NCBI GenBank assembly: GCA_963828165.1
Contig: CAWHDR010000001.1
Location: 1,107,543-1,171,542, forward strand
DNA length: 64,000 nucleotides
Reading direction: 5' to 3'
DNA from: an uncultured Chloroflexia bacterium
GTDB lineage: Bacteria > Chloroflexota > Limnocylindria > Limnocylindrales > CSP1-4
Shown here: positions 5,685 to 44,512 of the stretch, piece after piece
Position numbering within the stretch: position 1 is the first letter of the stretch
Layout of the letters: each line of letters starts with the position of its first letter
Notes under the pieces: model-generated
Told to the model about the DNA's origin: nothing
The model's database searches: none
Seen by the model: the letters and a program-made list of their open reading frames with translations, nothing else
Position numbers and translations under genes: made by a program

Positions 5685-6134
5685 TCAGCTCACCGCCTTC
5701 GTCACGAGCTCGGCGATTCGCGCCTCGTCGGCGGCGGTCAGCTTCGTCAACGCCCAGGACGTCGGCCACATCGAGCCTTCGTCGAGGTTCGCGCCCTCGT
5801 CGAAGCCGAACGTGGCGTATCTCGACTTGAACTTATCGGCCGCCTGGAAGAAGCACACGTTCTTGCCATCCTTGGCATAGGCGGGCATCCCGTACCAGAG
5901 CTTCGGAGCGAGCCCTGGCGCCGTGGCCCTGACGATGGTGTGGATCCGTTCAGCCATGACGCGATCCGAATCCGGCATCTCGGCGATCTTCGCGAGCAGC
6001 GCCTTCTCAGCCTCGGCCTGGCTCGCCTCCGCCTTCAGCTCTTTGGCACGCTCTCGCATCGCGGCCTTTTCTTCGGTCGAGAACCCCTTGGACTTGCCCG
6101 TCGTGCGCTTGTTGGCTTTCGGCGTGGCGTTCAT
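5685..6134 (-). CDS. DUF1801 (YdhG-like) domain protein
   Basis: 149 aa: [16 protein letters not shown]...[32 protein letters not shown]. By-eye alignment gives about half identical residues to 3267..3755 over the C-terminal domain. Confidence 0.8.
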
Positions 6135-9792: not shown

Positions 9793-10586
9793 CCCGCCTC
9801 GTCCGCGTCGGGGCTCGAGATCCCTTCCAGGCGAGCCCGCAGGAGCTCCGTGCCGGCTGCATCCGCGACCCGGCACGACCAGCCGCCGTCGTTCCCGCGC
9901 CAGGTGACGGCATCCACCGCCGCGCCGGACTCGGCCGCACGAGCGTACTCGAGGCGCGCGCGCCGCGGGATCGCCCGGACGTCTGTCAGCCCGCCGGCCG
10001 CGATGACCTGCTCGTCGAGCCAGTCGGCATAGACGGCGTTGTTGACGTGGTCCATCGGATCGAGCTCCTGCGGCCGGACCGAGAACCGCGACGACCGGGC
10101 TGCCGGCGGAGGTTCCGCCAGCGGCACGCGCGCCAGGGCGAACGGCGCGTCCGGCGCCCCGAATACCGGTTGGAAGTCGAGCGGCACGCGCGTCGGGGCG
10201 CCACGCTCGTCGAGGAGCACCCAGTCGACGTGCGTCCACGCGACGAGCATGCTGGCGCCATCCACGAAATCGGTCCGTCGCCGCGCCCAGACCCGGCGCC
10301 AGCCGACGACCCGGGTCGTTCCGGTCAATCCGTCACCGACGCGGACCGGCGCCTCCACGGCGACCTCTGCGGTTCGGGCCAGCCAGGTGAGACCCCGCTC
10401 GCGATACCAGTCGCGGTCGAAGCCACGGCTCGCGGAGTGAAACCAGGCCAGGTCCTGGGCGTAGCGCAGCAGGACGGACGTCCGCAGCAGGCCGTCGGGG
10501 CCCGCCTCGTCGAAACGGACCCGGAACGGCGCCGAGCAGGCGTCGGGCTCACCGGGCGCTCGGGTGGCTGGGTCCTCGGCCGTCAC
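9789..10586 (-). CDS. Acyl-ACP thioesterase-like (double hot-dog) protein
   Basis: 265 aa from the GTG at 10586: FRVRFDEAGPDGLLRTSVLLRYAQDLAWFHS... and the second repeat FSVRPQELDPMDHVNNAVYADWLDE. The upstream part of the 435-aa ORF is junk. Confidence 0.75.
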   Translation of the reverse strand: MTAEDPATRAPGEPDACSAPFRVRFDEAGPDGLLRTSVLLRYAQDLAWFHSASRGFDRDWYRERGLTWLARTAEVAVEAPVRVGDGLTGTTRVVGWRRVWARRRTDFVDGASMLVAWTHVDWVLLDERGAPTRVPLDFQPVFGAPDAPFALARVPLAEPPPAARSSRFSVRPQELDPMDHVNNAVYADWLDEQVIAAGGLTDVRAIPRRARLEYARAAESGAAVDAVTWRGNDGGWSCRVADAAGTELLRARLEGISSPDADEAG

Positions 10587-11260
10587 GGGGCCACCGCCGC
10601 GATGCGATCGAGGGCCTCGAGCGGCACGATCGTCGTGCCGGTACGCGGCGCGTACTGACGCTCGAGGCGCACCTCGCACGATCGCTCCGCATCGAACACC
10701 ACGAGCGCCACGCGAAGTGCCTCGTCCTCGTCGGCCGCGTGACTGCGCGCGTCGTCCAGCTGGTGGAGGACGTCGTCGTTGATCCCGCGCGCCCCCCATT
10801 TGCAGTCGTAGGCCTCCGCCGCGCCTTCCCGTTCGACGGTCACGTCGTACGGATGGACCTCCGACCGCACGCCGTCGAACAGGATCCGTCGCTCCCGCCG
10901 AACGGCCGCTTCGCCGACGCGACGCGCCAGCAGGATGGCGGTCAGCTCCTCGACGATCGCGCCGCGGAACTGGCTGCGGACCTGTTCTCCCCGCTCGGCG
11001 ACCTCCAGGCTGGCGGCAAGGATGGCCTCGGAGCGCGTCCGTTCGTCGCCGGCTGGGACGGACACGCCGAACAGCGTGGGGAACATCGCGAGCCAACCCG
11101 TGACATCGGTCGTCTCACCGTTCATCGCCGCCCGCGCCAGGACGCGCTGCGACGGGGTCGCGTCGGCGAGGAGCGTCGCCGCTCGCTTCGCGAGCGGGTC
11201 GGCCTGGATCCCCGCGTACACGATCGCGCGGCCGTCGCGCGCGGCGTCCTGGAACCTCAT
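10583..11260 (-). CDS. Hypothetical protein with PD-(D/E)xK nuclease-like motifs
   Basis: 225 aa. Helix E (GAIVEELTAILL), then HPYDVTVEREGAAEAYDCKWG, which gives D ... D-x-K spacing typical of restriction-endonuclease-like folds. The stop overlaps the thioesterase start (GTGA). Confidence 0.6.
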   Translation of the reverse strand: MRFQDAARDGRAIVYAGIQADPLAKRAATLLADATPSQRVLARAAMNGETTDVTGWLAMFPTLFGVSVPAGDERTRSEAILAASLEVAERGEQVRSQFRGAIVEELTAILLARRVGEAAVRRERRILFDGVRSEVHPYDVTVEREGAAEAYDCKWGARGINDDVLHQLDDARSHAADEDEALRVALVVFDAERSCEVRLERQYAPRTGTTIVPLEALDRIAAVAP

Positions 11261-11559
11261 GGCGTCTCGCCGAGGGCCAGCAGGGCGACCTGCGGGAAGG
11301 TCGACAGCCAGTCGATCGCGCGGTGCGGGTCGGTGATGCGGTCGACCTCGTCGATCAAGCGGTCGATGGCGGCGTCGACGGCGGGGTCCAGGGGTGCGCT
11401 CGTCCCCGACCCGGCTGCCAGCTCGAGGCGCTCGCGCCAGGCGGACGACAGGTCATCGACATACGACCACTCGTCCTCGACTTCCTCGGCCCGCTCGGTC
11501 AGCCGCGCATAGGCCGCAAGGGCGCGATCGATCGCCTGGTCGACAGTCGCAGATGCCAT
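11257..11559 (-). CDS. Small acidic hypothetical protein
   Basis: 100 aa, helical and acidic (EEVEDEWSYVDDLSSAWRERLE). The stop overlaps the start of 10583..11260 (ATGA). Confidence 0.55.
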   Translation of the reverse strand: MASATVDQAIDRALAAYARLTERAEEVEDEWSYVDDLSSAWRERLELAAGSGTSAPLDPAVDAAIDRLIDEVDRITDPHRAIDWLSTFPQVALLALGETP

Positions 11560-11601
11560 GTTCGAAGCGTACGACCGGTGTGGCCGTCGCGCTCCCGAGG
11601 A

Positions 11602-11895
11602 TCAGTCCTGGACGCTCGCCGCTCGATGCCGCTGGCGACCCATCACCCGACCAAGGGTCCGTGTCCTGCCGCGTCCAAGCTTGGCCTCGGCGGCGGTCGG
11701 TCGCTCGGCGCGCCGAAGCAGGGCTTCGAGCTCCCGATGGGCCCGGTCATCCCATGATCGGGAATAGGCTGCCGTCGCCCGTTGTCGCACGAGTCGAGCC
11801 TCGCCCCGATCCCCGGCCTCCTCGAGGAGGGCCACGCGGTCGAGGATGGCGCGGTACAGCGTCGGTAGATCCTCGGCGCGAGAGTTTGGCTCCAT
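11602..11895 (-). CDS. Hypothetical protein (97 aa)
   Basis: Start set at M45 of ORF 11602..12027. Helical N-terminus and basic C-terminus. No family recognised. Confidence 0.4.
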   Translation of the reverse strand: MEPNSRAEDLPTLYRAILDRVALLEEAGDRGEARLVRQRATAAYSRSWDDRAHRELEALLRRAERPTAAEAKLGRGRTRTLGRVMGRQRHRAASVQD

Positions 11896-11968
11896 CGTGC
11901 GAAGACGATGCCGGACGATGGTCCCAACCGAAATAGCCCAGCGGTCCCACTCAGGCGAGGCGATGGGG

Positions 11969-12271
11969 TCAGTCACCCCGATGACCGCCGGCACGGATGC
12001 CGAAGTCGCGCAGGTCCCCCGTCGCACTGCTCCACGTCGCGCTGACCCGCTCGACGAGTGCGCCGGCCGGTCCGAGCTCCATCGATTCGAGCAGCGCCTC
12101 GAGGTCGTCGCGCGGGCCTTCCGCCACGCATCGCACCGATCCGTCCAATTCGTTCGCGACCCAGCCGCTCAACCCCAGCTCCATCCCGCGGCGCAGGACG
12201 AAGTATCGAAAGCCCACGCCCTGGACCCGGCCACGGGCCGTGGCCTCGAGGCGGACCTGATCCGAGGTCAC
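11969..12271 (-). CDS. acyP: Acylphosphatase
   Basis: 100 aa from GTG 12271. Signature RGRVQGVGFRYFV...GLSGWVANELDGSVRCVAEG. The GTG overlaps the holB stop (GTGA). Confidence 0.85.
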   Translation of the reverse strand: MTSDQVRLEATARGRVQGVGFRYFVLRRGMELGLSGWVANELDGSVRCVAEGPRDDLEALLESMELGPAGALVERVSATWSSATGDLRDFGIRAGGHRGD

Positions 12272-13443
12272 GCGGCGGCGTCGGCCGGTCGCGGCCAGGC
12301 CAGCGCCAGGTCGTCCAGGATCAGCTCGGGCGAGACGTTCGCCACGATCAGGACCGACGCGCGACCGAGGCGGTCGAGGAACGCATCCAGCTCGCGGGCG
12401 TCCATTCGCTGCCCGATCGCGGTCGTTTCGTCCAGCAGGCCGATGTCGCGGATGGATCGCTCGAGCCCGCGCCGGCACAACGCAAGGTCGCGCGCCGTGT
12501 CGGTCCAGAGCGCGATCAGGGCCTCGGCCGCGCGCCGGCGCTCGGCGGCCGGAGTTCTGACGCTGGTGCCACCTTCGTCGCCGGCGTCGCCGTTGGCGTC
12601 GACGCCATCGGACGCGGCGGTGCTCGTGGCTTTCACGACGACCGAGGCCGGCTCTCCTGCCCCTTCGCCCATCGCCGTGAGGGAGCCGGCACGAGCCACG
12701 GCCGCCCGCACGCCGGCCAGCCGCTCCGCCGGCCGCGCCGCGAGCAGGTCCAGCAGCGATCGACTCAATTCATCGCGGACCCGCAGCGCCTCGGGCTGAC
12801 GCGCCCAGGCCAGTGCAAGCCCTGGTCGTCCCGCGGTGATGCGGGCCAGGCGGCTCGCGAGCGGGGCGTCGGCGACCCCATGCTCGGCCAGGATGGCCTC
12901 GACGTCGCGGGTGGCGACCGGCCCGAGTCGGAGACGGGCGCAGCGCGAACGGATGGTCGGCAGCAGCGGCTCTTCGGCGTCCGCGCAGAGGATCAGCGTC
13001 ACCCTGGAAGGTGGCTCCTCCAGCGTCTTGAGCAAGGCGGCCTGCGCGTCCTCGTTCATGCGCTGGGCCGCCTCGACGATGGCCACCCGGGCCCCGCCCT
13101 CGACCGGCAGGAGCGCAAGGTCGGCGATGAGATCCCGGATCCCTCGGACACGAGCGCCGGGGCCGCCGATGACCACCTGGCGTCCCGGTCCCTCGGGACC
13201 GACCCGATGGACGTCGGGGTGGCCGCCCGAGGCGACCAACCGGCACGCGCGACACGATCCGCAGGGGCGGTCGGCCGGATCGTCCGCGGTGCACAGCAAT
13301 CCGGCGGCCAGATCCATTGCGAGCGTCGTCTTGCCGACGCCGGCGGGACCCACGAGCAGGACGGCATGGGGCGCTCCGCCACGGATCATCGAGCCGACCG
13401 CGGCGAGTGCCGCCGGCTGTCCGCGGGTCCGCGCCCCATCCAT
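12268..13443 (-). CDS. holB: DNA polymerase III delta-prime subunit
   Basis: 391 aa from ATG 13443: AVLLVGPAGVGKTTLA, zinc module CGSCRACRLVASGGHPD, NEDAQAALLKTLEEPP, SRC motif TIRSRC. It has an Ala/Gly/Asp-rich insertion before the C-terminal domain. Confidence 0.85.
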   Translation of the reverse strand: MDGARTRGQPAALAAVGSMIRGGAPHAVLLVGPAGVGKTTLAMDLAAGLLCTADDPADRPCGSCRACRLVASGGHPDVHRVGPEGPGRQVVIGGPGARVRGIRDLIADLALLPVEGGARVAIVEAAQRMNEDAQAALLKTLEEPPSRVTLILCADAEEPLLPTIRSRCARLRLGPVATRDVEAILAEHGVADAPLASRLARITAGRPGLALAWARQPEALRVRDELSRSLLDLLAARPAERLAGVRAAVARAGSLTAMGEGAGEPASVVVKATSTAASDGVDANGDAGDEGGTSVRTPAAERRRAAEALIALWTDTARDLALCRRGLERSIRDIGLLDETTAIGQRMDARELDAFLDRLGRASVLIVANVSPELILDDLALAWPRPADAAA

Positions 13444-13454
13444 CCTGGATTCGC

Positions 13455-15455
13455 TCAGGCGGGGTCGCTCGAGCTGGCTGCGGTCTTGCGAGTGGTCTTC
13501 CGCTTCGGCTTGGCCTCGGCCCCGGCGGCGTCCCCGGCTGCGCTGTCGGCGGCTGTGGCCGCGGTCTTGCGCGTGGTCCGTCGCTTGGGTGCGGGTGCTT
13601 CCGCGGATCCGGTGCCCGGATCGGTGCTGGCCGGGGCCGGCTCCGTCGCGGTTGCGCTCGTCGCCGCCTTCCGGGTGGAGCGTCGCTTCGGCGCGGCCGA
13701 CTGGCCGTCCTCGGCCGGCGCGACAGCGGACGCCGTCGTCTTGCGCGTGGTCCGTCGCTTCGGCGCTGCGGCCGTCGCAGCATCCTCGATGGCGGCTTCG
13801 GCCGTGATCGCCTCGGCTGGTGCGACCGCATCGGCCGCCACCGGACGGGTCTCGCTGGGGCGGGACTCCGAGGTGCCGGGCTTCTGGCTCACCTGCGCGC
13901 GCAGCATCGCCTCGAGCTCGGGCGGGACCTCGCTCCACGGCTCGCTCGACGAGGTCGCGCGCGGCGTGGCCTCGCGGGGGCGCTCGTCACGGCGGGCGGG
14001 TCCCCGGTCCTCGCGTGGTCCGCGGCTCGGTGCGGCGTTTCCGCCCGTCCGGCCGCTGACATCGGGGTAGCGGTTGATGCCGCCACCGCCACCGCCGCGT
14101 CCGTAGCGCTCGCGCTCGACCGCGGACTGGTACGCGGCCCGTCCGCCGCGCGGTCCCCCGCGGCCGCCCTGCGGGCTACGGGCGTTGCCGCCACGGGCCC
14201 CGCGGCGCTGCTCGGCGATGAGGTACTCGGGAATCTCCGGCTCGTCGAAATCCTCGTCGTCATCGCTGAGCGGAGTCAGGTTCGCAGAGCTCGGGGCCGC
14301 AGTCGTGCCGAGCTGCGAGTCCCACACCGATCCGAACGGAGTGGTTCGCGGGCCGCGCGGGGCCTGCGGCTCCTCCTCGATGTCGTCGGGATCCTCGTCC
14401 AGGTCGCGGGTCGGACCCGAGGCGGCCGATGAGGCCGCTGGGGCGGAACGGTCCGCGCTCGCGGGAGCGTCGATCGCCTCGTCACGCCCACGGCCACGAC
14501 CGCGGCCGCGTCCCCCACGACGGCGCCGACGGCGACCCGTCTCGTCCTCGCGGAGCTCGGTACCCTCGGCATCGTCGGCTCCGGCCGACTCGACCGGCTG
14601 GGGCGATCCGTCGGTCGACACGACCGCCGGCTCACCGAGATCATCGATCGTGAAGACCTCGGCGGCCGCCAGATCCGATTCGGTGAGGTTGCCGACCGCC
14701 TTCGAGAGGCGCTCCCCGGGCAGGGCGACGAGTCCGGCGTCGCTGTCGTGAGCGGCCCCGACCCCGTTCGTGGCGACGGCTCCGGCGCGACCGCGTCCGC
14801 CGCGCGAGCGCGATGTCGTCGAGGTCACGGGCTCCGCCTCGCCGGAGCGGCCACGACCGCGCCCGCCGCGACCACGACCGCCGCGACCGAGCCCGGTGCC
14901 CTCCGTCTGCTTGTCGGGAACCTCCGTCATCGACAGGTCCGCGTCATCGTCCGCCACGCGGCGGCCGGAGCGGGAACCCTTCTCGACGCGCGCGAGCTGG
15001 GTGATGTCGGTGAACAGGTCCGCGACCTCGATGAGGTCCGATGAGGTGTTGCCGCGGAAGCTGATGACCTCGCAGCGTACGCCCATCTCCTGGACGGCAC
15101 GGATCGCCGGGGCGAAGTCGCCGTCGCCCGACACGACGATCGCGATATCCAGGTTCCGGGCCGTCTTCATCATGTCGACGACGAGCTCGATATCGAGGTT
15201 GGCCTTGACCTTGCCGTCGCCGTACTTGCGGATGTCCTTGCTGACGACCTTGTACCCATGACGGCGCAGGAAGTCGTGGAAATTGCGCTGGTTCTCGTTT
15301 TCCGGGTCCAGCCCGGTGTATGCGTAGGCACGCACGAGATCGCGCCCGGCCGAGGCCGACTTGAGAAGCGTGACGTAATCGATGTCCACGCCGGCGGCCT
15401 TTGCCGCAAAGAAGATGTTCGCCACGTCTACGAAGACGGCGACGTTTTTGCTCAC
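13455..15455 (-). CDS. NYN (LabA/DUF88, PIN-like) domain protein with ~490-aa disordered RGG/acidic/basic-repeat tail
   Basis: GTG 15455 is preceded by AAGGAG with a 6-nt spacer. The N-terminal ~170 aa read NVAVFVDVANIFF...YKVVSKDIRKYGDGKVKANLDIELVVDMM...DIAIVVSGDGDFAPAIRAVQEMGVRCEVISF, a NYN fold. The rest is low-complexity. Confidence 0.8.
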   Translation of the reverse strand: MSKNVAVFVDVANIFFAAKAAGVDIDYVTLLKSASAGRDLVRAYAYTGLDPENENQRNFHDFLRRHGYKVVSKDIRKYGDGKVKANLDIELVVDMMKTARNLDIAIVVSGDGDFAPAIRAVQEMGVRCEVISFRGNTSSDLIEVADLFTDITQLARVEKGSRSGRRVADDDADLSMTEVPDKQTEGTGLGRGGRGRGGRGRGRSGEAEPVTSTTSRSRGGRGRAGAVATNGVGAAHDSDAGLVALPGERLSKAVGNLTESDLAAAEVFTIDDLGEPAVVSTDGSPQPVESAGADDAEGTELREDETGRRRRRRGGRGRGRGRGRDEAIDAPASADRSAPAASSAASGPTRDLDEDPDDIEEEPQAPRGPRTTPFGSVWDSQLGTTAAPSSANLTPLSDDDEDFDEPEIPEYLIAEQRRGARGGNARSPQGGRGGPRGGRAAYQSAVERERYGRGGGGGGINRYPDVSGRTGGNAAPSRGPREDRGPARRDERPREATPRATSSSEPWSEVPPELEAMLRAQVSQKPGTSESRPSETRPVAADAVAPAEAITAEAAIEDAATAAAPKRRTTRKTTASAVAPAEDGQSAAPKRRSTRKAATSATATEPAPASTDPGTGSAEAPAPKRRTTRKTAATAADSAAGDAAGAEAKPKRKTTRKTAASSSDPA
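13458..13766 (-). repeat. Coding repeat: four dispersed copies of P-K-R-(R/K)-(T/S)-T-R-K-(T/A) in the C-terminus of the NYN protein
   Basis: The peptides APKRRTTRKT, APKRRSTRKA, APKRRTTRKT and KPKRKTTRKT are separated by Ala/Thr/Ser/Asp spacers. On the plus strand they appear as recurring ggtcttgcgcgtggtccgtcgcttcgg-like units. Confidence 0.75.
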
Positions 15456-15522
15456 GAATGACTCCTTGGTCCGATATATGGCGCTCGGCCGGCGCGATCG
15501 CGCTGCTCGGCGGAGCGTTGAG

Positions 15523-15987
15523 CTAGGTGCGGCGCGCCGTGATTCCCACCGCGGCCACGGTTCGTTGGATGCGCGGACCGGCGAGCGCAAAACCTTGCGC
15601 CGCCCAGCGGCCCAGGGCCGCCGGATCGTCCGGGCGGACTGCCTCCACGAGGGTGCAGCCTTTGTTGCTCGCCGAGCGGATGAGGTCCTCGAGGAGGGCG
15701 TCCGTCACGCGGTCCGCGTCATGGTCGGGGTCGACGACCAGAAGGTCGATCGTGCCGACGAAGCCGCCAGCACGTACCGAGGGCCGTAGGGCCAAGACGG
15801 CCCCACCTACGACGACACGCTGCGTCTCGGCCACGAAGATGCTGGCCTGCGGAAGGTACACCAGCTGGCGCATGAGGTCCGCCGCATCGAGCGGGCTGGC
15901 ACCACGGTCCACACGAAGGTCACCGTCGCTCAATGCGACGAGACGGTCGATATCCGTGACACGGGCTGCTCGGATCAGGTATTCCAC
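15523..15987 (-). CDS. GNAT-family acetyltransferase
   Basis: 154 aa from the GTG at 15987: IFVAETQRVVVGGAVLALRPS...GTIDLLVVDPDHDADRVTDALLEDLIRSASNKGC. Confidence 0.7.
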   Translation of the reverse strand: MEYLIRAARVTDIDRLVALSDGDLRVDRGASPLDAADLMRQLVYLPQASIFVAETQRVVVGGAVLALRPSVRAGGFVGTIDLLVVDPDHDADRVTDALLEDLIRSASNKGCTLVEAVRPDDPAALGRWAAQGFALAGPRIQRTVAAVGITARRT

Positions 15988-16403
15988 GCCGAAGGTTCGT
16001 ACCTCGCAGGACGGCGACCCGTCGCCCCTCGACCTGGGTCGTTGTGACCCTGGGCCGGTACCTCCTGGCCTGCGGACCCTGCCAACGGCGAGCATGAAGC
16101 TCGCGACACGCGCGAGGCGCACGGCGGGGGTGCGGCCGACCGGTATTGCATTCAGGTCGCCGGTGGCTATGATACGGCATCGTTTCGGCGGTCACCTGCG
16201 CACCGCCCGAACACGGTCCTGCATCGCCGTCCGTCACGCACCGCCGCTCGCCCCGTCGACGCCCTGGGAGGGCACCGTCGGTGGGACGCGAGCACGAGGG
16301 CGACGGGCGAGCCTCGCATCTCCGTTTCGGGAGCTGGCGGGAAGGCCCCGGCCGAAGGTCGCTCCGGAACCGCCGGACGATCGGACACTCAGGAGGAGAA
16401 TGC

Positions 16404-17705
16404 ATGAAGCTCACCAAGGTCGGAGCCGTCGCCGCGAGTGCGGTGTTCGTCTTCGCCGCTTGCTCACCGGCCCCGGCTGGGTCTGCTGCTGCCCCTAGTG
16501 GCAGTGGAGGCGCCGCCGCACAGCCGGAGGTCTGCAAGAACAAGAAGGGCACGAGCAGCAACGAGATCCACGTGTACTCGTCGTTGCCGCGTCAGGGTTC
16601 GAACACGGCCCAGACGAACGCCCTCGTCGAGTCGATCAAGGAGATCCTTGACGGCAAGACGGTCGGTTCATTCACGATCAAGTACACGGACCTCGACGAC
16701 TCTTCGGCCGCCAACAATGGCGACTGGGACGGCGCCGTGGCCCAGCAGAACGCGACGACCGCGGCCAACGACCCCGACGCGATGGTCTTCATCGGCCACT
16801 TCAACTCGGGTGCGGCCAAGCTCACGATCCCGATCCTCAATGCCGCCTGCCTCGTCATGATCAGCCCCGCGAACACGTATCCGGGCCTGACCACGGCGGT
16901 CGAGGGCGTCACGGAGCCGGGCGAGCCGGATAGCTACTATCCGAACGGCTATCGCAACTACTCGCGCGTCATCTCGACGGACAACAAGCAGGGTGGAGCC
17001 GGCGCGGCCTGGGCCAAGGAGCTCGGCGCCACGAAGGCCTACGTCCTCGACGACACCCAGGTCTACGGCAAGGGCCTTGCACGATCGTGGGCACTGTCCG
17101 CGAACGAGCTCGGCATCGAGGTCGTCAGCGCGAACGGCACGAGCGAAGGCTTCGACGCCAAGGCGACGGACTACGCCGCCCTGGCCCAGAAGGTCAAGGA
17201 CTCGGGTGCCGACTTCGTCTACATCGGATCCATCACGGGCCAGAACACGGGCAAGCTCTGGAAGGACCTTCGGGCCGCCATGCCTGACATGAAGATCATG
17301 TCCGGCGACGGCGTGTTCGAGGAGTCGTGGTACGAGGGCACAGGCGAGGCTGGCAACAGCACCTACCTCACCTTCGGCGGCGTCGGTCCGAACGAGCAGA
17401 CCTCGGACGCCGGCAAGAAGTGGGTCGCCGACTACAAGGCGGCGCACGACGGCGACGATCCGCCCGTCTACGGCATCTACGGTGCGGCCGCGGCCCAGCT
17501 CGCGCTGGACGCCCTCACCCGAGCCGGGACCAACGACCGCTACGAGGTCCTGAAGAACGTCTTCTCGACCACGGACTTCGCGTCGTACCTCGGCACGTTC
17601 TCCATCAAGCCGGACGGCGACACGACGCTGGCCGAGGCGACCGGTTATCAGGTCGTCGACAGCTGGCCGCCGAAGTTCGAGAAGGTGCTCGCCGCGCCCG
17701 AGTGA
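16404..17705 (+). CDS. livJ: ABC transporter substrate-binding lipoprotein, branched-chain amino acid (LivJ/LivK) family
   Basis: ATG 16404 lies after AGGAGGAG. Signal and lipobox MKLTKVGAVAASAVFVFAAC. Type I periplasmic-binding fold. Followed by livHMGF. Confidence 0.8.
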   Translation: MKLTKVGAVAASAVFVFAACSPAPAGSAAAPSGSGGAAAQPEVCKNKKGTSSNEIHVYSSLPRQGSNTAQTNALVESIKEILDGKTVGSFTIKYTDLDDSSAANNGDWDGAVAQQNATTAANDPDAMVFIGHFNSGAAKLTIPILNAACLVMISPANTYPGLTTAVEGVTEPGEPDSYYPNGYRNYSRVISTDNKQGGAGAAWAKELGATKAYVLDDTQVYGKGLARSWALSANELGIEVVSANGTSEGFDAKATDYAALAQKVKDSGADFVYIGSITGQNTGKLWKDLRAAMPDMKIMSGDGVFEESWYEGTGEAGNSTYLTFGGVGPNEQTSDAGKKWVADYKAAHDGDDPPVYGIYGAAAAQLALDALTRAGTNDRYEVLKNVFSTTDFASYLGTFSIKPDGDTTLAEATGYQVVDSWPPKFEKVLAAPE

Positions 17706-32351: not shown

Positions 32352-32744
32352 ATGGCATCTCCGCGTCAGGACCGCGATCCCACGAGGCCCGTCTACGTGA
32401 TCAGCGTGGCGGCCACCCTGGTGAGCGCGCACCCTCGAACCCTGCGTATCTACGAGGACGAGGGCCTGCTCTGCCCGGCCCGGACGCCGACCAACATCCG
32501 CCTCTATTCCGAGAATGACATCCGGCGGATCCTGTGGATCCGCCACCTGACCCGCGAGCGGGGCGTCAACCTCGCCGGGATCCGGATCCTGTTCGAGCTG
32601 GAGGAGCGCCTCGGTGCTCGCGTCCTGGAGGCGCTCTACGCCGAAGGGACGGGCGATGCCGAGAGCATCCGTCCCGCGACAGCAGCCCCGGAACCCTCCA
32701 AGGACTCATCCACGTCACGCGATCCATCCATGGCAGACCGTTGA
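32352..32744 (+). CDS. hspR: MerR-family heat-shock repressor, HspR-like
   Basis: VYVISVAATLVSAHPRTLRIYEDEGLLCPARTPTNIRLYSENDIRRILWIRHLTRERGVNLAGIRILFELE. Sits at the head of lon/cbpA/clpB. Confidence 0.75.
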   Translation: MASPRQDRDPTRPVYVISVAATLVSAHPRTLRIYEDEGLLCPARTPTNIRLYSENDIRRILWIRHLTRERGVNLAGIRILFELEERLGARVLEALYAEGTGDAESIRPATAAPEPSKDSSTSRDPSMADR

Positions 32745-32821
32745 GCGATCGACCCACCACCAAGCCTTCAGCGGGAACCCCTCCCGCCGACACCGAACCC
32801 GAACGTCAGGAGAACCTCGAC

Positions 32822-35335
<2,514 letters not shown>

Positions 35336-35534: not shown

Positions 35535-36611
35535 ATGGACTACAAGGACTATTACGCCGTTCTCGGCGTGCCGAGGACTGCGTCGCAGAAAGAGATCAAG
35601 AAGGCCTTCCGTAAGCTCGCGCGCGAGCACCACCCGGACACGAAGGGCGGCGACGCCGCGGCCGAGGTGCGGTTCAAGGAGGTCAACGAGGCGAACGCCG
35701 TCCTGTCCGACCCGGACAAGCGGGCGCTCTACGACCGCCTGGGGGCCGATTGGCAGTCGTATGCGCGGGCGGGTGCGGGCGCGCCCGCCGGAACGGGGGC
35801 TCGGGCCGGCGGCGCCGCAGCCGGCGACCCCTTCGGCGGGTACGCCGGGTTCGGTGGCGCACCCGGTGGCAGCGTCCGCTACGAGTTCCATACGACCGGA
35901 GACGCCGGCGAGTTCAGCGACTTCTTCAACGCGTTCTTCGCGGGCGAGTCCGAGCCATTGAGCACACCCGGCCGCGGCCGGCGGGCGACGGGTGGCGCCA
36001 CGTTCGAGGACATCCTCGCCGGGATGGGCCTCGGTGCCGATGGCGGTGCCGCGACGAGCCGTCCACGTCCCACGACCACCACGGCCGCACGACCGCGACC
36101 CGCGTCGGCGGAGGCCACGGCCGACATCACGCTCGAGGAGGCGTATCACGGGACGAGCCGGCTCGTCGAGGTCGAGGGCAAGCGCCTCGAAGTCACGATC
36201 CCGCGCGGCGCCGATACCGGCAGCCGCATCCGATTGACCGGCAAGGCGCCCGGCGGCGGCGACCTGTACGTCGTGGTCCGCCAGCGTCCCGACCGGGTGT
36301 TCACGCGTCGCGGTGCGGACCTGGAGCGCGAGCTGTCCCTGACCCTCGGGGAGGCGCTCCTCGGCGCGGACGTCAAGGTCCGTACGCCCAAGGGACGCGT
36401 CGTGCTCACGATCCCGGCCGGAACCCAGGGGGGTCGCGTGTTCCGGCTGACCGGCCAGGGCATGCCGAGGTTTCGCGCGGACGGCTACGGGGACCTGTAC
36501 GTGAAAGCCCGCGTCATCCTCCCGACCGACCTCTCCGACGCCGCTCGCGAGGCGGCCGCCCAGTTCTTCGAACTCGTCGACCAACCCGATCCCCGCACCA
36601 GTGAGTCCTGA
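35535..36611 (+). CDS. cbpA: DnaJ-class co-chaperone without the zinc-finger domain (CbpA-like)
   Basis: J domain [31 protein letters not shown], a G/A-rich linker, two DnaJ C-terminal beta domains, and no CxxCxGxG repeats. Confidence 0.8.
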
Positions 36612-36612
36612 C

Positions 36613-39594
36613 ATGCAACTCGATCGCTTCACCCAGAAGGCCCAGGAAACCATCCTCGCCGCCCAGGCGACCGCCGAGCGGCTGCACAGCCCGGTCCTCG
36701 ACGCGGAGCATCTCCTCAGCGCGCTCGTCGACCCCGACGACGGCATCCCGGCCGAGACGCTTCGCCGGCTCGGCGTCGATCTGCCGGCGTTCCGCGGCGA
36801 GGTCGCGGCGGCGCTCGCGCGGCGCGCACGTATCGAGGGCGGCTCGCTCAGCCTGGACCCGCGCGCCAAGGGCGTCGTCGAGCGGGCGGAGGCGGAAGCC
36901 CGTCGCCTGTCCGACGACTACGTCTCGACGGAGCATCTGCTGCTCGGCGTCGCCGAGGCCGGCGGCGATGCCCAGGCCATCCTCGAGCGGCACAGCGCCG
37001 GCAAGGAAGCGCTCCTGCAGGCCCTGCAGAGTGTCCGGGGCGGGCAACGTGTCACCTCCCAGAACCCCGAGGGCACGTACGCAGCGCTCGAGAAGTACGG
37101 CCGCGACCTGACCGCCGAAGCGCGGGCCGGCAAGCTGGACCCCGTCATCGGGCGCGACGACGAGATCCGCCGCGTCATCCAGGTCCTCAGCCGGCGGACC
37201 AAGAACAACCCCGTCCTCATCGGGGATCCCGGCGTCGGCAAGACGGCCATCGCCGAGGGCCTCGCCCAGCGCATCGTGCGCGGCGACGTCCCAGAGGGGC
37301 TCAAGGACAAGCGCGTCGTCGGGCTGGACCTTGGCGCCCTCATCGCCGGGGCGAAGTTCCGAGGCGAATTCGAGGAGCGGCTCAAGGCCGTGCTCAAGGA
37401 GATCAAGGACTCGGACGGGCAGGTCGTGCTGTTCATCGACGAGCTCCACACGGTCGTCGGTGCCGGCGCCGCCGAGGGCGCCATGGACGCATCCAACCTG
37501 CTCAAGCCGATGCTCGCACGGGGCGAGCTGCACACGATCGGTGCGACCACCCTCGACGAATACCGCAAGTACATCGAGAAGGACGCCGCGCTCGAGCGCC
37601 GTTTCCAGCCGGTCCTCGTGGATCAGCCCACGGTCGAGGAGACCATCAGCATCCTGCGCGGGCTGCGCGAACGCTACGAGGTCCATCACGGGGTCCGCAT
37701 CACCGATTCCGCGCTCGTGGCCGCGGCGACCCTGTCCGATCGCTACATCACCGAGCGCTTCCTGCCCGACAAGGCGATCGACCTCGTCGACGAGGCGGCC
37801 TCGCGGCTGCGCATGGAGATCGACTCGATGCCGATCGAGCTCGACGAGCTCGAGCGCCGGCGCATCCAGCTCGAGATCGAGCGAGAGGCCCTGCGCAAGG
37901 AGACGGACGACGCGTCGAAGGCCCGCCTCGAGGCGCTCGAGAAGGAGCTGGCGGACCTGGAAGAGCAGGCCGGCGGCATGAAGCAGCGCTGGGAGGCCGA
38001 AAAGGCCGCGATCGCCGCCATCCGCACGACAAAGTCGGAGCTCGAGCAGCTCCAGGTTCGCATCGAGCAGGCGGAGCGGGAGGCTGACTTCGCGACGGCC
38101 GCCGAGCTCAAGTACGCCACCCAGAAGGAGCTCAACGACCGGCTCACCGAGGAGGAAGCGACGCTCGCCGCGCTGCAGGGCCCGGGGACGCTGCTCAAGG
38201 AAGAGGTCGGAGCGGACGACATCGCCCAGATCGTCGGGGCATGGACGGGCATCCCGGTCAGCCGCCTGCTGGAGGGCGAGACCGCCAAGCTCATCGAGAT
38301 GGAGGACCGCCTGCACCAGCGGGTGGTCGGTCAGGACGAGGCCATCCAGGCGGTTTCGGACGCCGTCCGCCGAGCCCGAGCCGGGCTCAAGGACCCGCGC
38401 CGGCCGATCGGCTCGTTCCTGTTCCTCGGCCCGACCGGTGTCGGCAAGACCGAGCTCGCCCGCGCACTTGCCGAGTTCCTGTTCGATGACGAGAACGCGA
38501 TGGTCCGCATCGACATGAGCGAATACATGGAGAAGTTCGCGGTCAGCCGCCTGCTCGGGGCACCCCCGGGCTACGTCGGCTACGAAGAAGGCGGCCAGCT
38601 GACCGAGGCGGTCCGCCGCCGGCCGTACCAGGTGATCCTGCTCGACGAGATCGAGAAGGCCCATCCGGACGTGTTCAACGTGCTTTTGCAGGTCCTCGAC
38701 GACGGCCGCCTGACCGACGGTCAGGGCCGCACGGTGAACTTCAAGAACACGGTCGTGATCATGACCAGCAACGTCGGCTCCGCGGCCATCGCCGCCACGA
38801 ACGCCAGGGCTGGTGACGCTGCCTACGAGCAGATGAAGCGAGATGTCACCGAAGCCCTGCGATCGCACTTCCGGCCGGAATTCCTCAACCGCGTGGACGA
38901 GGTCATCGTGTTCCACGCCCTCACCGACGAGGACCTCAGCGCGATCGTGGACCTGCTGCTCGCGGACCTGGGCCGACGGCTGGCCCAGCAGGACATCGAG
39001 CTGGAGCTGACCGCGGCCGCTCGTGCGCTGATCGTGCGCGAGGGCACCGATCCCGCGTTCGGGGCGCGCCCGCTCAAGCGGACGATCCAGCGACTCGTCG
39101 AGAACCAGCTGGCCCGCGCCCTCGTCGGCGGCGAGTTCCGGCCGGGCGACCGGGTGACGGCGGACGCGGACCTCACGTCGGGCACGCTCGTCTTCTCGAC
39201 CGAGGGCGCGACCGTGGTCGGCGAGGCCGGCCGCCGTGACGCCCGGCGCCGCGAGGACGACGACCTGGCCGCCGTCGGAGGGCGTGCAGGGCCGCCCGAA
39301 TTCGCGCCTGGATCTCCCGCCGACGCGCCCCAAGCGCGACGACGGCGAGCTGGTCAACTGACCCAAGCCGGCCAGCGGCGATCGGTCGGCATGCGCTTCG
39401 ACGTCGCCGCGGACGCGCCTGTCGCTCCTGCCCGATCCCCTGCCGGTCCCGGCCGATGTGATGATGCCCGTCGTCGTCGGCGGGTCGGACCTCAAGGCCG
39501 CCCGCGATGCCGCGTTCCGGCCGGCCCGGGCGACCCGCGGCGGTCCTCGTCCTGCTCTACCCGGACGCCGAGGGTGAGGCCCGCGTGGTCCTGA
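36613..39594 (+). CDS. clpB: Chaperone disaggregase ClpB (the ORF carries a ~130-codon atypical C-terminal run-on)
   Basis: Clp N repeats, NBD1 GDPGVGKTA, a long coiled-coil M-domain, NBD2 GPTGVGKTE, and the canonical end ...[21 protein letters not shown] near 39200. No stop follows until 39594. Confidence 0.9.
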
Positions 39595-40074
39595 TCGAAC
39601 GGACGACCGGTGACGGGCATCACTCGGGCGAGGTCAGCTTTCCCGGTGGCAAGTCGGAGCCCGAGGACGCTGATCCCGCCGCGACCGCCCTGCGCGAGGC
39701 GAACGAGGAGGTGGCCCTCGACGCCGACGCAGCCGGCGTTCGCGTCGTGGGCCTGCTGGATCGGATGTGGATCCCCGTGAGCGACTTCGACGTGACGCCC
39801 GTGGTCGCACTCGCGGAGCGCCCACCACGCTCTGGCGCCGTCCCCGTTCGAGGTGGCCAGGATCCTGGAGCCACACGTCGCCCGCTTCCTTCCCGACGCG
39901 CCGGTGACCATGGTCGAACGGACGATCCGGGAATGGCCTCTGCGTTACGGCACGTACGATCTGGACGGCCTGTCGGTGTGGGGCGCCACGGCACGCATCC
40001 TGAGCCAGCTCGGGGCGGTCCTCGCGCCCGTGGCCGCGGGACCGAGCAAAGACGGGGATCGACCGACGGCCTGA
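39507..40074 (+). pseudogene. NUDIX hydrolase (CoA pyrophosphatase-like), frameshifted
   Basis: The Nudix box GEVSFPGGKSEPEDADPAATALREANEE is in frame 0. The C-terminal part LAPSPFEVARILEPHVARFL...WGATARIL is in frame 1 (ORF 39853..40074). The junction is at about 39818-39832. Confidence 0.7.
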
Positions 40075-42324: not shown

Positions 42325-42765
42325 TCAGCGCCGACGTCGACGCGGCGGCCGGCGACCGCCGCGTCGACGGATCGTGGCTTCCGGGTCCGCGAACTTCTGC
42401 TTCGTGTAGTAGCGCTGCCGGGCGAGCCGCTGCTCATGGGCGCGCAGCAGCGGCGGGAAGCGGACGAACCGGATCCAGACGAGCGTGCCAAGCCCGATGA
42501 CCGCGGTCGCGAGCACCAGGATGAAGTCGAAGATGAAGAGCGACTCGATCATCAACAAGGCGAAGGTGATCAGCCCGGTCCACCACAGCCACTCCCACAT
42601 GTCCACGAACGGGGCGTGCTTGTGGAGCGCCCGGGTGCGAACGTTGTAGAGGACGATGAGCACGATCAGCAGGATCCCGGAAGCGATCCACGTGGGGTGG
42701 AACAGGTCCGGGAACAGCTCGCTGGTGAACGACGTGAACAGGTACTCCCAGGGCGGCAGCGTCAC
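42325..42765 (-). CDS. Small membrane protein with an Arg-rich C-terminus
   Basis: 146 aa from the GTG at 42765, with GAGG upstream. Three hydrophobic helices (WIASGILLIVLIVLY, WEWLWWTGLITFALLMI, FILVLATAVIGLGTLVWI). Confidence 0.6.
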   Translation of the reverse strand: MTLPPWEYLFTSFTSELFPDLFHPTWIASGILLIVLIVLYNVRTRALHKHAPFVDMWEWLWWTGLITFALLMIESLFIFDFILVLATAVIGLGTLVWIRFVRFPPLLRAHEQRLARQRYYTKQKFADPEATIRRRGGRRPPRRRRR

Positions 42766-42955
42766 ATGGGACCTCGCGAGGGGTGGTGATCGGTCCGGCG
42801 AGGGACGGCACACGTGGCCGATGCCGCTCGACGGTCCCGGGAGTATGCCATGTCGGACGCTATACTTCGGCCGCGACGCGCCCGTGGTCCGCCCGCCCGC
42901 CCAGGACGGCGTGGAAGCAGCCGCTGCGTCGCTGTCGGATCCGCGTGGATGGAGG

Positions 42956-44512
42956 ATGCCCCGGTTGCGAGCCCTGCTGTCAGTCGCGAACCGGGAGGGG
43001 ATCGCCGCGCTCGCGCGGGACCTGCAGGGCCTCGACGTGGAGATCGTGGCCACCGACGGCACGCGCGAATTCCTGGCCGGTGAGGGCGTGGAGGTCGGCA
43101 GCGTGTCCGACCTCACGCAGGTGCCACCGCTCGTCGGTGGACAGGTCAAGACCTTCCACCCGGCCGTGTACGCAGGCATCCTCGCGCGGCGCGACGTGCC
43201 CGAGCAGCTGGCCGAGCTCGAGGCACAGGGCATCGGCCCGATCGACATCGTGGTCGTCAACGTCAAACCGTTCGCGCCGGAGGTCGGCGCGAAGCTCGTC
43301 GGACTCGACGAGGCCATCGAGATGATCGATGTCGGCGGTGCGGCGCTCCTCGGCGCAGCCGCACGCAACGCGGCCGGGGTGACGGCCGTCGCCGATCCGG
43401 CCCACTACCCGACGGTCGTCGAGGAGTTGCGGGCGCTCGGGCACACGAGCCCGGAGCTGCGGGCACGCCTGGCGGCCGAGGCGTTCAGCACGGTCGCGGC
43501 CTATCACGCCGAGATCGCCGCCTACCTCAACCAGATCTCCGGCAACGTCTTCCCGAGCCGGCTCGCGATGGTGCTCGAGAAGGTGGACGAGCTGCGCTAC
43601 GGCGAGAACCCGCACCAGCGAGCGGCGTTCTACCGCGAGACGACGCACCGCAGCGGCACCCTCGCCGATGCCGGCCAGCTCCAGGGCGGCCGCCCGTCGT
43701 TCAACAACCTGCTCGACCTCGATGCCGCGTATCGCATCGCCCGGGACTACACCGCCCCGACGGTCACGATCGTCAAGCACACGGACCCGGTCGGGCTGGC
43801 GTCGCACGAAGAGCTCGTCGAGGCCTACCGGCACGCGCTCGAGACCGATCCCGTCGCGTCCTTCGGCGGCATCGTCGGGGTGAACCGCGAGATGGATGGA
43901 GCGACCGCCCGCGAGATCGCGGCCAACTCGTACGAGGCGGTCGTCGCGCCGTCGTACAGCGCGGCTGCCCTCAAGATCCTGCAGGCCAAGGCCGGGCTGG
44001 AGATCCTCGCCGTGCCACCCGATCCCACGGAAGGCATGCGCGACTACGGCATCGCGAACCTGGACTTCAAACGCGTCGCGGGCGGCCTGCTGGTCGAGGA
44101 CCTCGACGACCTGGCGCTCGATCGCGGCAACCTGCAAGTCGTCACCCGCCGCCGACCGACGCTCGAGGAGCTCACCGACCTGCTGTTCGCGTGGCGCGCG
44201 GTGCGCCACGTGCGATCGAACGCGATCATCCTGGCCCGCAACGGCGCGACCGTGGGGATCGGCGCCGGCCAGGCGTCGCGGGGGGTGTCGGTCGAGATCG
44301 CGCTCCGGCGGGCCGGCGACCGGTCCAAGCTGGCCGTCATGGCCGCGGACGCGTACTTCCCGTTCCCGGACGGCATCCAGCTGGCGGCCTCGGCCGGCGT
44401 GACGGCGATCATCCAGCCCGGCGGCTCCATCCGCGACGAGATGGCGATCGAGGTCGCCGACCGCCATCATCTCGCGATGGTCTTCACCGGCCGGAGGCAT
44501 TTTCGACACTGA
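42956..44512 (+). CDS. purH: Bifunctional AICAR transformylase / IMP cyclohydrolase
   Basis: 518 aa from ATG 42956, with GGAGG upstream. MGS-like domain ([18 protein letters not shown]...GGQVKTFHP) and AICARFT domain ([28 protein letters not shown]). Uninterrupted. Confidence 0.95.

Follow-up and report, generated by a model that had tools for sequence, protein, structure and literature searches.

Does the gene at positions 13455..15455 of the window, the whole 64,000-nucleotide stretch of DNA from an uncultured Chloroflexia bacterium analysed here, encode a genuine fusion of a LabA-type NYN nuclease domain with a long disordered tail, and what might such a protein do in the cell? A preliminary description of the locus, made from the sequence alone, had read it as an RNA-processing nuclease with a multivalent, possibly phase-separating tail. 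We find that the product consists of a NYN domain with an intact active site and a tail, predicted to be disordered, along which a series of short motifs has been kept in order. The reading that we favour, with evenly balanced confidence, is that of a lineage-specific housekeeping endoribonuclease whose tail would capture RNA and recruit partners, much as the C-terminal scaffold of RNase E does, to which it is unrelated. The gene, its start signal and its catalytic domain are as follows.

13455..15455, minus strand: NYN-plus-tail gene, 666 aa, GTG start at 15455, TGA stop at 13455-13457 (open reading frame and translation)
15462..15467, minus strand: Shine-Dalgarno sequence AAGGAG, 6 nt 5' of the GTG (sequence reading)
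15003..15455, minus strand: NYN (LabA/DUF88, PF01936) metallonuclease domain, aa 1-151, predicted active site D10, N13, D50, D88, S109 and D111 (plus D113)

The GTG at 15455, rather than the upstream TTG of the mechanically called open reading frame (ORF), is taken to be the real start because relatives begin with MGKNVAVFVD or MSKNVAVFVD there. An exact look-up found no database record identical to the window protein, and two related proteins, P0001 and P0062 (94% identical), stood in for it.

A NYN domain with an intact active site

Residues 4-151 belong to the Pfam family PF01936, aligned to positions 1-144 of a 145-position model (E 5.3e-36; 124.7 bits, with a cut-off of 24.2). The sole solved structure in the PDB among the sequence-level relatives is 2qip (VPA0982 of Vibrio parahaemolyticus), which is 31% identical over 150 residues and was matched at E 1.6e-17 by sequence and at 1.9e-21 with the family profile. 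An AlphaFold2 (AF2) model of residues 1-190, built from the family alignment and 27 Vibrio NYN proteins (around 31% identical) that were retrieved with the 2qip sequence, reaches a predicted local distance difference test score (pLDDT) of about 90 in residues 1-155, where strands and helices follow one another in turn. Foldseek comparison of this model with the PDB placed 2qip at the top (E 1.8e-14; target-normalized TM-score, TMt, 0.82), followed by the NYN domains of human and mouse MARF1 (6fdl and 5yaa; TMt 0.72-0.73), beyond which lay generic Rossmann-like folds. MARF1 was reached only by this comparison of folds and not by the profile search of the PDB by sequence. The model and the Foldseek matches together give the domain a PIN-like alpha/beta/alpha fold, so that the N-terminal part does model as NYN/PIN.

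D10, D88 and D111 align to D14, D92 and D115 of Vpa0982, which correspond to D358, D426 and D452 of human MARF1 and to D13, D118 and D143 of a NYN protein of Bacteroides fragilis (bioRxiv 10.1101/2024.04.08.588522). In the latter, a CRISPR-associated enzyme, the D13A mutation abolishes Mn-dependent cleavage of single-stranded RNA (bioRxiv 10.1101/2024.04.08.588522). In mouse MARF1, none of four Asp residues, located where strands 1, 2 and 4 end and where helix 3 begins, can be dispensed with; conservation extends to an Asn that follows strand 1 and a Ser placed two positions ahead of the last Asp (PMC6217404). D10, D50, D88, D111, N13 and S109 sit at these MARF1 active-site places in our AF2 model; D50, at the end of strand 2, was assigned by its place in the model and not by residue-level superposition. 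All of D10, N13, D50, D88, S109, D111 and D113 are invariant across the family alignments, and all but D50 are also invariant in comparison with the Vibrio NYN proteins. The motif SGDGDF is common to the window protein and the 2qip group. Pfam, the 2qip match, AF2 and Foldseek thus agree on a LabA-type NYN domain with an intact active site, as had been proposed. By analogy with MARF1 and the B. fragilis NYN protein, proven RNases with the same catalytic residues, the window protein would be an endoribonuclease.

The same invariance bears on a very unlikely alternative, in which the protein is a non-catalytic regulator or RNA chaperone comparable to cyanobacterial LabA, which is known from genetics only, with the NYN domain serving as a binding module that sequesters RNA or proteins. 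LabA and LalA are regulatory and have no demonstrated nuclease activity (PMC5499597), and a large multivalent tail could by itself act as an RNA chaperone. However, the catalytic Asp residues, N13 and S109 are invariant in all aligned members, a pattern difficult to account for in a protein that does not catalyse.

The tail is real coding sequence

Residues 152-666 form a tail of 515 aa. In DNA of high G+C content (62-77% around the locus, 72% for the organism), long ORFs stay open in many frames, and the tail might have been a frameshift read-through on a true NYN protein of about 170-200 aa. We therefore surveyed ORF lengths in 83 related loci (L001-L083), 74 of which hold a complete ORF. 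Sixty-seven of the 74 ORFs are at least 558 aa long, the median is 647 aa, and the tail motifs are collinear at the protein level. The remaining seven are short (201-476 aa), but in six of them the strongest tail homology runs on in another frame, and in the seventh, L044, it runs on in-frame past a stop. The survey thus found no genuine short orthologue. These lengths, the collinear motifs and the G+C content at third codon positions of 0.84 in the frame of the gene rule out an annotation artefact, the probability of which we regard as negligible; it is effectively excluded, and the preliminary description was right to treat the tail as part of the protein.

The seven interrupted loci, all from species-representative genomes, are L034, L035, L038, L039, L041, L044 and L066, in each of which the NYN gene starts at 6001. 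Since most are long-read metagenome-assembled genomes (MAGs), the interruptions in the G+C-rich tail are probably assembly indels and not pseudogenes.

A disordered tail with conserved islands

The tail is rich in Ala (16.9%), Arg (12.6%) and Gly (12.4%), with only 10.9% hydrophobic residues, and its 79 positive and 80 negative charges make it a near-neutral polyampholyte. Chance expectation was taken from 2000 composition-preserving shuffles of the tail. Arg-Gly (RG) dipeptides number 20, compared with 8.0 +/- 2.6 in the shuffles (z 4.7), and Arg-Gly-Gly (RGG) tripeptides number eight, compared with 0.95 +/- 0.94 (z 7.5); neither count was reached in any of the 2000. Local charge segregation is likewise higher than in any shuffle (z 7.7), whereas the whole-chain sequence charge decoration of the tail is not significant (z -1.6). 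Positive and negative charges lie in alternating blocks and are not parted to the two ends.

Searched alone against Pfam, the tail has no match at E <= 10, and so no detectable OST-HTH domain. A full-length AF2 model, made with a family alignment of 35 sequences (mean pLDDT 40.8; predicted TM-score 0.20), is informative for the tail only; it is poor even on the NYN domain, where the family alignment offers almost no variation. In this model the tail has no fold save short helices at conserved islands, and confidence is raised for helices at 410-420, 438-451 and 512-523 (mean pLDDT of the 10-residue blocks, 56-76), which coincide with islands. The AF2 model and the shuffle tests uphold the earlier picture of a disordered tail with RGG, acidic and basic blocks, and every motif quoted in the preliminary description is present in the translation, in the order stated. 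The elements of the tail are listed below, with tallies from 75 full-length family members.

14898..15002, minus strand: near-invariant extension after the NYN domain, aa 152-186, TQLARVEKGSRSGRRVADDDADLSMTEVPDKQTEG (alignments; pLDDT below 50 at 157-190)
14844..14888, minus strand: RGG box 1, aa 190-204, GRGGRGRGGRGRGRS; RG box in 74 of 75
14781..14807, minus strand: minor RGG box SRGGRGRAG, aa 217-225, weakly conserved
14634..14735, minus strand: conserved island, aa 241-274, GLVALPGERLSKAVGNLTESDLAAAEVFTIDDLG, core LVALPGERL; LPGERL in 48 of 75, helix predicted at 259-265
14481..14534, minus strand: Arg run plus RG box 2, aa 308-325, RRRRRRGGRGRGRGRGRD; in 73 of 75
14367..14405, minus strand: acidic block 1, aa 351-363, DLDEDPDDIEEEP; acidity kept, sequence variable
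14304..14360, minus strand: conserved motif, aa 366-384, PRGPRTTPFGSVWDSQLGT; F-G-x-V-W-D in 63 of 75, helix predicted at 377-381
14199..14270, minus strand: acidic block 2 plus helix motif, aa 396-419, LSDDDEDFDEPEIPEYLIAEQRRG; acidic part, aa 396-411, LSDDDEDFDEPEIPEY
14049..14168, minus strand: RGG box 3 with embedded helix, aa 430-469, GGRGGPRGGRAAYQSAVERERYGRGGGGGGINRYPDVSGR; ERERYG in 63 of 75
13890..13943, minus strand: conserved motif, aa 505-522, EPWSEVPPELEAMLRAQV; in 69 of 75, E505-E513 invariant
13482..13763, minus strand: four basic repeats P-K-R-R/K-T/S-T-R-K, aa 565-573, 589-597, 623-631 and 650-658

The segment at aa 152-186 is a candidate regulatory or docking motif. The tail's most conserved basic element is aa 308-325, in which R308-R322 are invariant (alignment A1) and identity among divergent representatives is 90-100%. 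Within aa 396-419, E405-I413 are invariant and IPEYL occurs in 74 of the 75 members; a helix is predicted at 410-420, and the blocks over 401-420 have a mean pLDDT of 56-60. RGG box 3 reads GGRGGPRGGR...GRGGGGGG over aa 430-459, with a helix predicted at 438-451 (mean pLDDT about 60 for block 441-450), and the motif at aa 505-522 holds the best-predicted helix of the tail (512-523; mean pLDDT 76 for block 511-520). Two of the basic repeats read PKRRTTRKT, one PKRRSTRKA and one PKRKTTRKT, and they are separated by spacers rich in Ala, Thr and Ser; at the DNA level the units are 55 nt long, 62-75% identical and 72-102 nt apart. Family members carry from zero to four copies of PKRRxTRK (median two). 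Thandapani and co-workers are said to have defined in 2013 di- and tri-RGG motifs by at least two RGG, and tri-RG motifs by at least three RG, separated by 0-4 residues and lying in a disordered region. Stretches of this kind are found in the window protein at aa 191-203 (RGGRGRGGRGRGR), aa 313-324 (RGGRGRGRGRGR) and aa 432-439 (RGGPRGGR), all with pLDDT below 50.

Conservation was profiled in the close set and in 24 divergent full-length representatives, the NYN domains of which are 85-96% identical. About nine collinear islands are kept where the tail overall falls to 26-45% identity. Their order is fixed: the segment at aa 152-186, RGG box 1, LVALPGERL, the R6-(GR)n island (essentially invariant) and PFGSVWDSQLG are followed by DEDFDEPEIPEYLIAEQRRG, RGGRAAYQSAxERERYG, EPWSEVPPELEAMLRAQ and finally zero to four PKRRxTRK repeats. 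Composition is conserved as well, with 12-17% Arg, 10-15% Gly and a median net charge of zero across the family. To judge from these ~9 collinear islands, the tail is more than low complexity; together, islands and composition point to a functional disordered region of binding motifs and spacers rather than junk. No other RG-rich or KRRxTRK-bearing ORF was found within the window, and the tail is therefore not a window-wide compositional habit.

Distribution in an uncultured lineage

A search of 5.8 billion proteins gave 2335 matches. The best 120 of these are all 446-844 aa long with NYN as the sole consistent domain, and most span the full query at 57-94% identity. Exhaustive HMMER searching of 1.84 billion 50%-identity representatives with the tail alone found only 218 clusters; in the full-length tail matches, the tail begins at residue 152 or later. 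Pfam placed the NYN domain at residues 4-151 in each of five full-length relatives (P0150, P0172, P0206, P0256 and P0034). A scan of species-representative genomes returned at least 239 relatives. The best 80 are without exception Chloroflexota MAGs; the label is Candidatus Limnocylindria or Limnocylindrales for many of them and generic Chloroflexota or Chloroflexia for most of the others, and no cultured organism is among these 80. On the evidence of these searches, the gene appears to be specific to one uncultured lineage.

Some gene-bearing contigs (P0032, P0091 and L074) are labelled Methylomirabilota, Candidatus Saccharimonadales or Candidatus Sulfomarinibacteraceae, and several further ones Anaerolineaceae or Thermomicrobiales. 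These deviant labels probably belong to mis-binned or loosely classified MAG contigs.

Long relatives of 624-926 aa were considered as new architectures and rejected, being mostly read-through fusions or chimeric contigs. P0225 joins the tail to holB and acylphosphatase, P0167 joins it to holB and P0260 to acylphosphatase; P0140 (825 aa) has about 170 extra residues N-terminal to the NYN domain; P0034 (844 aa, from the search of 5.8 billion proteins) is a chimera with a TonB-dependent receptor; and P0180 (876 aa) has no Pfam match. All six entries, which stand in public protein sets, could mislead surveys of domain architecture.

Conservation, gene neighbourhood and transcripts

The NYN gene lies between two genes that are read in the same direction.

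12268..13443, minus strand: holB (DNA polymerase III delta'), 391 aa, TIGR00678 E 1.8e-51, PF13177 E 1.3e-39
15523..15990, minus strand: small GNAT acetyltransferase, PF00583, directly 5' of the NYN gene

Between the TGA of the NYN gene and the ATG of holB at 13443 there are 11 nt, GCGAATCCAGG; both this spacing and the strong Shine-Dalgarno sequence reported earlier can be read directly in the DNA. Across the 83 loci, holB is downstream of the NYN gene in every locus that reaches far enough and the GNAT gene is upstream in 80, and the order GNAT-NYN-holB is kept in all sufficiently long loci and in the annotated contigs of relatives. The GNAT protein has no NCBIfam match, and its best PDB matches are generic (3fb3 and 2r1i); it could modify lysines of the tail or the N-terminus. 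Other neighbours are a branched-chain amino-acid ABC transporter, an acylphosphatase and an acyl-ACP thioesterase, and the wider window contains the housekeeping genes Lon, DnaJ, ClpB, PurH and RsmG.

The median identity to the window protein across the 83 loci is 94% for the NYN domain (minimum 85%), 89.5% for the extension at aa 152-190 and 47% for the tail, and the corresponding medians for the neighbours are 71% (GNAT), 69% (livG ATPase) and 58% (holB). The NYN domain is thus by far the slowest-evolving protein of the neighbourhood, which favours a core function and disfavours a defence or accessory role. A place in anti-phage defence or among toxin-type NYN nucleases had been raised by a PADLOC match (PDLC01154, LabA-like NYN nuclease; E 7.6e-22), but this match covers the NYN domain only (model positions 149-292 of 310), and since it is a match at the level of the domain the defence role is rejected. 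Defence genes are typically patchy in distribution and fast-evolving, whereas this gene sits in a fixed housekeeping operon and is far more conserved than its neighbours; no further defence gene or mobile element was seen nearby. We consider the defence reading most improbable and effectively excluded.

A near-invariant NYN surface (94% median) also suggests an equally conserved macromolecular partner, for example the ribosome. The same enzyme might be a maturation or quality-control nuclease associated with the ribosome, rRNA or tRNA, after the fashion of Rae1/YacP or of cyanobacterial NYN-OST-HTH proteins that co-purify with ribosomes, its tail acting as a ribosome tether and not as a decay hub, which we regard as possible though doubtful. 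Gene-neighbourhood analyses tie bacterial NYN domains to tRNA and rRNA processing (PMC5499597), and two NYN proteins of Synechocystis, Slr1870 and Slr0650, were recovered by co-immunoprecipitation with Rbp3, a ribosome-bound protein (PMC12232666). Structured G-rich RNA is a ligand of RGG tails, and the rRNA of an organism of such high G+C content is RNA of that kind. However, the vicinity has no gene for rRNA, tRNA or a ribosomal protein, and a scan of the full 64-kb window with Rfam found no family at the gathering threshold. Furthermore, Rae1 is of another family (NYN_YacP), and the presence of several distinct conserved motifs is more readily explained by a scaffold with many partners than by one tether.

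The constancy of holB raises the further, unlikely, reading of a DNA-directed role in replication or the nucleoid. Flaps, primers or R-loops would here be the substrates of a PIN/FEN-like nuclease that is kept on DNA by its basic repeats and RGG boxes. Proteins of the replisome, or those that interact with the single-stranded DNA-binding protein (SSB), would be bound through an acidic motif, DDDEDFDEPEIPEY, similar to the C-terminal tip of SSB. The holB gene 11 nt downstream appears to be co-transcribed and keeps its position in all loci extending far enough; holB neighbourhoods vary among bacteria, however, and often contain unrelated genes, so that synteny in one lineage may be historical. 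Actinobacterial HU and TopA carry histone-like tails, and the PKRRxTRK repeats in Ala-rich spacers are reminiscent of these. The SSB tip is D-D-D-I-P-F and requires a free C-terminus; the acidic stretch followed by I-P-E-Y resembles it, in resemblance only, but is internal. The PIN-like superfamily does include FEN and 5' nucleases (PMC5499597). A DNA substrate is disfavoured by the characterised relatives that come closest in structure and active site, since both MARF1 and the B. fragilis NYN protein are endonucleases of single-stranded RNA, and no QLxLF clamp-binding consensus was found in the protein.

Contigs of four soil and ice metatranscriptomes map along the NYN gene. One of them, 802 nt long, runs from the last part of the NYN gene into the first part of holB, while others bridge the GNAT-NYN junction; GNAT-NYN-holB is thus consistent with an expressed operon. 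A scan for promoters and terminators over 11500-16600 returned none on the minus strand. Contig depth in these data is not equivalent to expression, and a peak of 77-223 at 13272-13405, over the P-loop region of holB (four adjacent bins mostly below 30, maximum 31), is probably due to cross-mapping from many AAA+ genes and not to true expression.

Some other features of the window were recorded. Downstream of holB, at 10583-11559 on the minus strand, are two small ORFs (225 and 100 aa) with coding-like G+C content at third codon positions, and similar ORFs (222-225 and 100-103 aa) follow holB in relatives; the two had no NCBIfam match, and their counterparts have no recorded Pfam match. The ClpB ORF (36601-39594, plus strand) continues for about 140 residues past the D2-small domain in a stretch rich in Arg, Pro and Ala, which overlaps a minus-strand ORF (39492-39911) and could be a real extension or the result of a missed stop or frameshift. 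The first-start versions of the Lon ORF (32534-35335, plus strand) and the PurH ORF (42656-44512, plus strand) carry about 100 extra low-complexity N-terminal residues, and the true starts of both probably lie further downstream.

A proposed function

The conservation of the NYN domain, the fixed synteny and the matches to at least 239 species representatives argue for the housekeeping character of the endoribonuclease that we favour. We infer that it would work as follows. With Mg2+ or Mn2+ bound, the NYN part (residues 1-151) would cleave single-stranded RNA largely irrespective of its sequence, in the manner of MARF1 and the B. fragilis NYN protein. In the tail (residues 152-666), three kinds of element alternate in fixed order: putative nucleic-acid stickers, namely the three conserved RGG/Arg-run boxes and two to four PKRRxTRK repeats; acidic blocks; and five or six short, partly helical motifs, namely LVALPGERL, PFGSVWDSQLG, EIPEYLIAEQRRG, AYQSAxERERYG, EPWSEVPPELEAMLRAQ and the invariant segment at 152-186. 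The basic boxes would seize RNA and pass it to the catalytic domain, which itself carries no module for binding RNA, the short motifs would dock partner proteins, and the alternating charge blocks may permit self-association or RNA-driven condensation. The gene would be co-transcribed with the small GNAT gene and holB.

Several points weigh against this proposal. RGG and Lys/Arg repeats bind DNA besides RNA. The sole conserved functional neighbour is the replication gene holB, and no RNA-decay gene is conserved beside it. The formation of condensates is suggested purely by composition. Contigs of a metatranscriptome may derive from DNA, and the depth seen over the NYN domain is too high owing to cross-mapping from many species. 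Furthermore, as of 2017 nuclease studies had yet to be made on any bacterial NYN.COG1432 protein, LabA and LalA are known by their regulatory phenotypes, with nuclease activity undemonstrated, and PIN-like folds also take in DNA flap nucleases, FEN and 5' nucleases (PMC5499597).

A bolder version of the proposal, tentative and more doubtful than the proposal itself, is that in Candidatus Limnocylindria this nuclease, and not one of the RNase E, Y or J type, might be the central organiser of RNA decay. The tail would then be an independently evolved degradosome scaffold, its RGG and basic boxes binding G+C-rich, highly structured (possibly G-quadruplex-rich) transcripts, its five or six short motifs recruiting a helicase, an exonuclease and further partners, and its alternating charge blocks driving the formation of condensates like the bacterial ribonucleoprotein bodies (BR-bodies). 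If true, this would be a third convergent solution to the organisation of bacterial mRNA decay, and would add a bacterial RGG condensate protein.

The NYN domain itself is already known, and our literature searches found no description of the NYN-RGG architecture or of this family. Bacterial NYN/LabA proteins are abundant, and in the NYN.COG1432 group no member has an established biochemical role (PMC5499597). The window protein is a good entry point to that role: throughout a lineage of soil and freshwater that is abundant and uncultured, its catalytic domain shows the degree of conservation of core informational proteins, and its tail comes with short motifs already mapped, from which a search for partners could start. 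Should the mechanism be right, RNA-decay hubs that have a scaffold, and possibly form condensates, would have arisen repeatedly in bacteria, and RGG chemistry would not be confined to eukaryotes; if the tail is only a non-specific nucleic-acid tether, it would be an ordinary lineage-specific decoration of a known domain.

Comparison with known systems

The window protein shares its domain family, fold and acidic active site with the LabA/DUF88 NYN proteins, such as VPA0982 (2qip) and LabA of Synechococcus. The 2qip relatives of the Vibrio clade are stand-alone proteins of 157-177 aa, whereas the window protein adds a 35-residue extension and about 480 further residues. The earlier remark that most stand-alone NYN proteins are short thus holds, as the Vibrio clade shows; in bacteria, however, fusions of NYN with OST-HTH are common (PMC5499597, PMC2848206); OST-HTH is the usual bacterial NYN appendage (PMC2848206).

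MARF1 and DNE1 have the NYN fold and the catalytic Asp residues in common with the window protein, although sequence identity to MARF1 is only around 14%. Their bare NYN domains depend on appended RNA-binding modules, and MARF1 with a truncated LOTUS domain loses RNase activity (PMC6217404). Both associate with decapping or P-body factors (PMC6217404, PMC6294520, PMC10226599). In MARF1 and the bacterial NYN-OST-HTH proteins the appended modules are folded LOTUS or RRM domains; in contrast, the window protein has disordered RGG and basic boxes with short motifs.

Rae1/YacP, the ribosome-dependent enzyme of Bacillus subtilis that acts on mRNA, is also a bacterial endoribonuclease of the NYN superfamily. 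It differs in its family (NYN_YacP, PF05991) and GYN motif, in the lack of a long disordered tail and in its gene context (PMC5499597).

The tail resembles eukaryotic RG/RGG proteins of the FUS, hnRNP, nucleolin, LAF-1 and DDX4 types in having clustered RGG and RG within charge-patterned disorder. The RGG regions of such proteins bind RNA, including G-quadruplexes, and promote condensates (PMC11920403; bioRxiv 10.64898/2026.01.26.701751). The window protein, however, is bacterial and fused to a nuclease, the likeness is convergent and one of composition only, and Arg methylation is not expected.

The scaffold of RNase E (Escherichia coli, Caulobacter BR-bodies and mycobacteria) offers a likeness in long disorder, Arg-rich segments, charge blocks and short, partly helical islands kept amid sequence that otherwise evolves fast (PMC10412687, PMC12767347). 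There is no homology: RNase E has an RNase E/G catalytic domain, with S1, 5' sensor, DNase I-like and Zn-link parts, where the window protein has NYN, and the window protein has no match to the Pfam RNase E/G family. Membership of the RNase E family was also considered and rejected, since the sole NCBIfam hit, to mycobacterial RNase E, scored 15.4 bits with a cut-off of 1400 (E 0.003) and reflects Arg-Gly low complexity, so that no NCBIfam family was matched. Blocky alternation of charge has been linked to self-association both in RNase E scaffolds and in eukaryotic RGG proteins (PMC10412687, PMC11920403). The resemblance between the tail and the RNase E scaffold is anatomical, and by analogy the one may work like the other. 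Disordered Arg-rich tails on bacterial RNA enzymes are familiar, and the combination found here of an ultra-conserved NYN domain with a motif-rich scaffold is a concrete and testable lead, an architecture that mirrors the RNase E scaffold on an unrelated nuclease.

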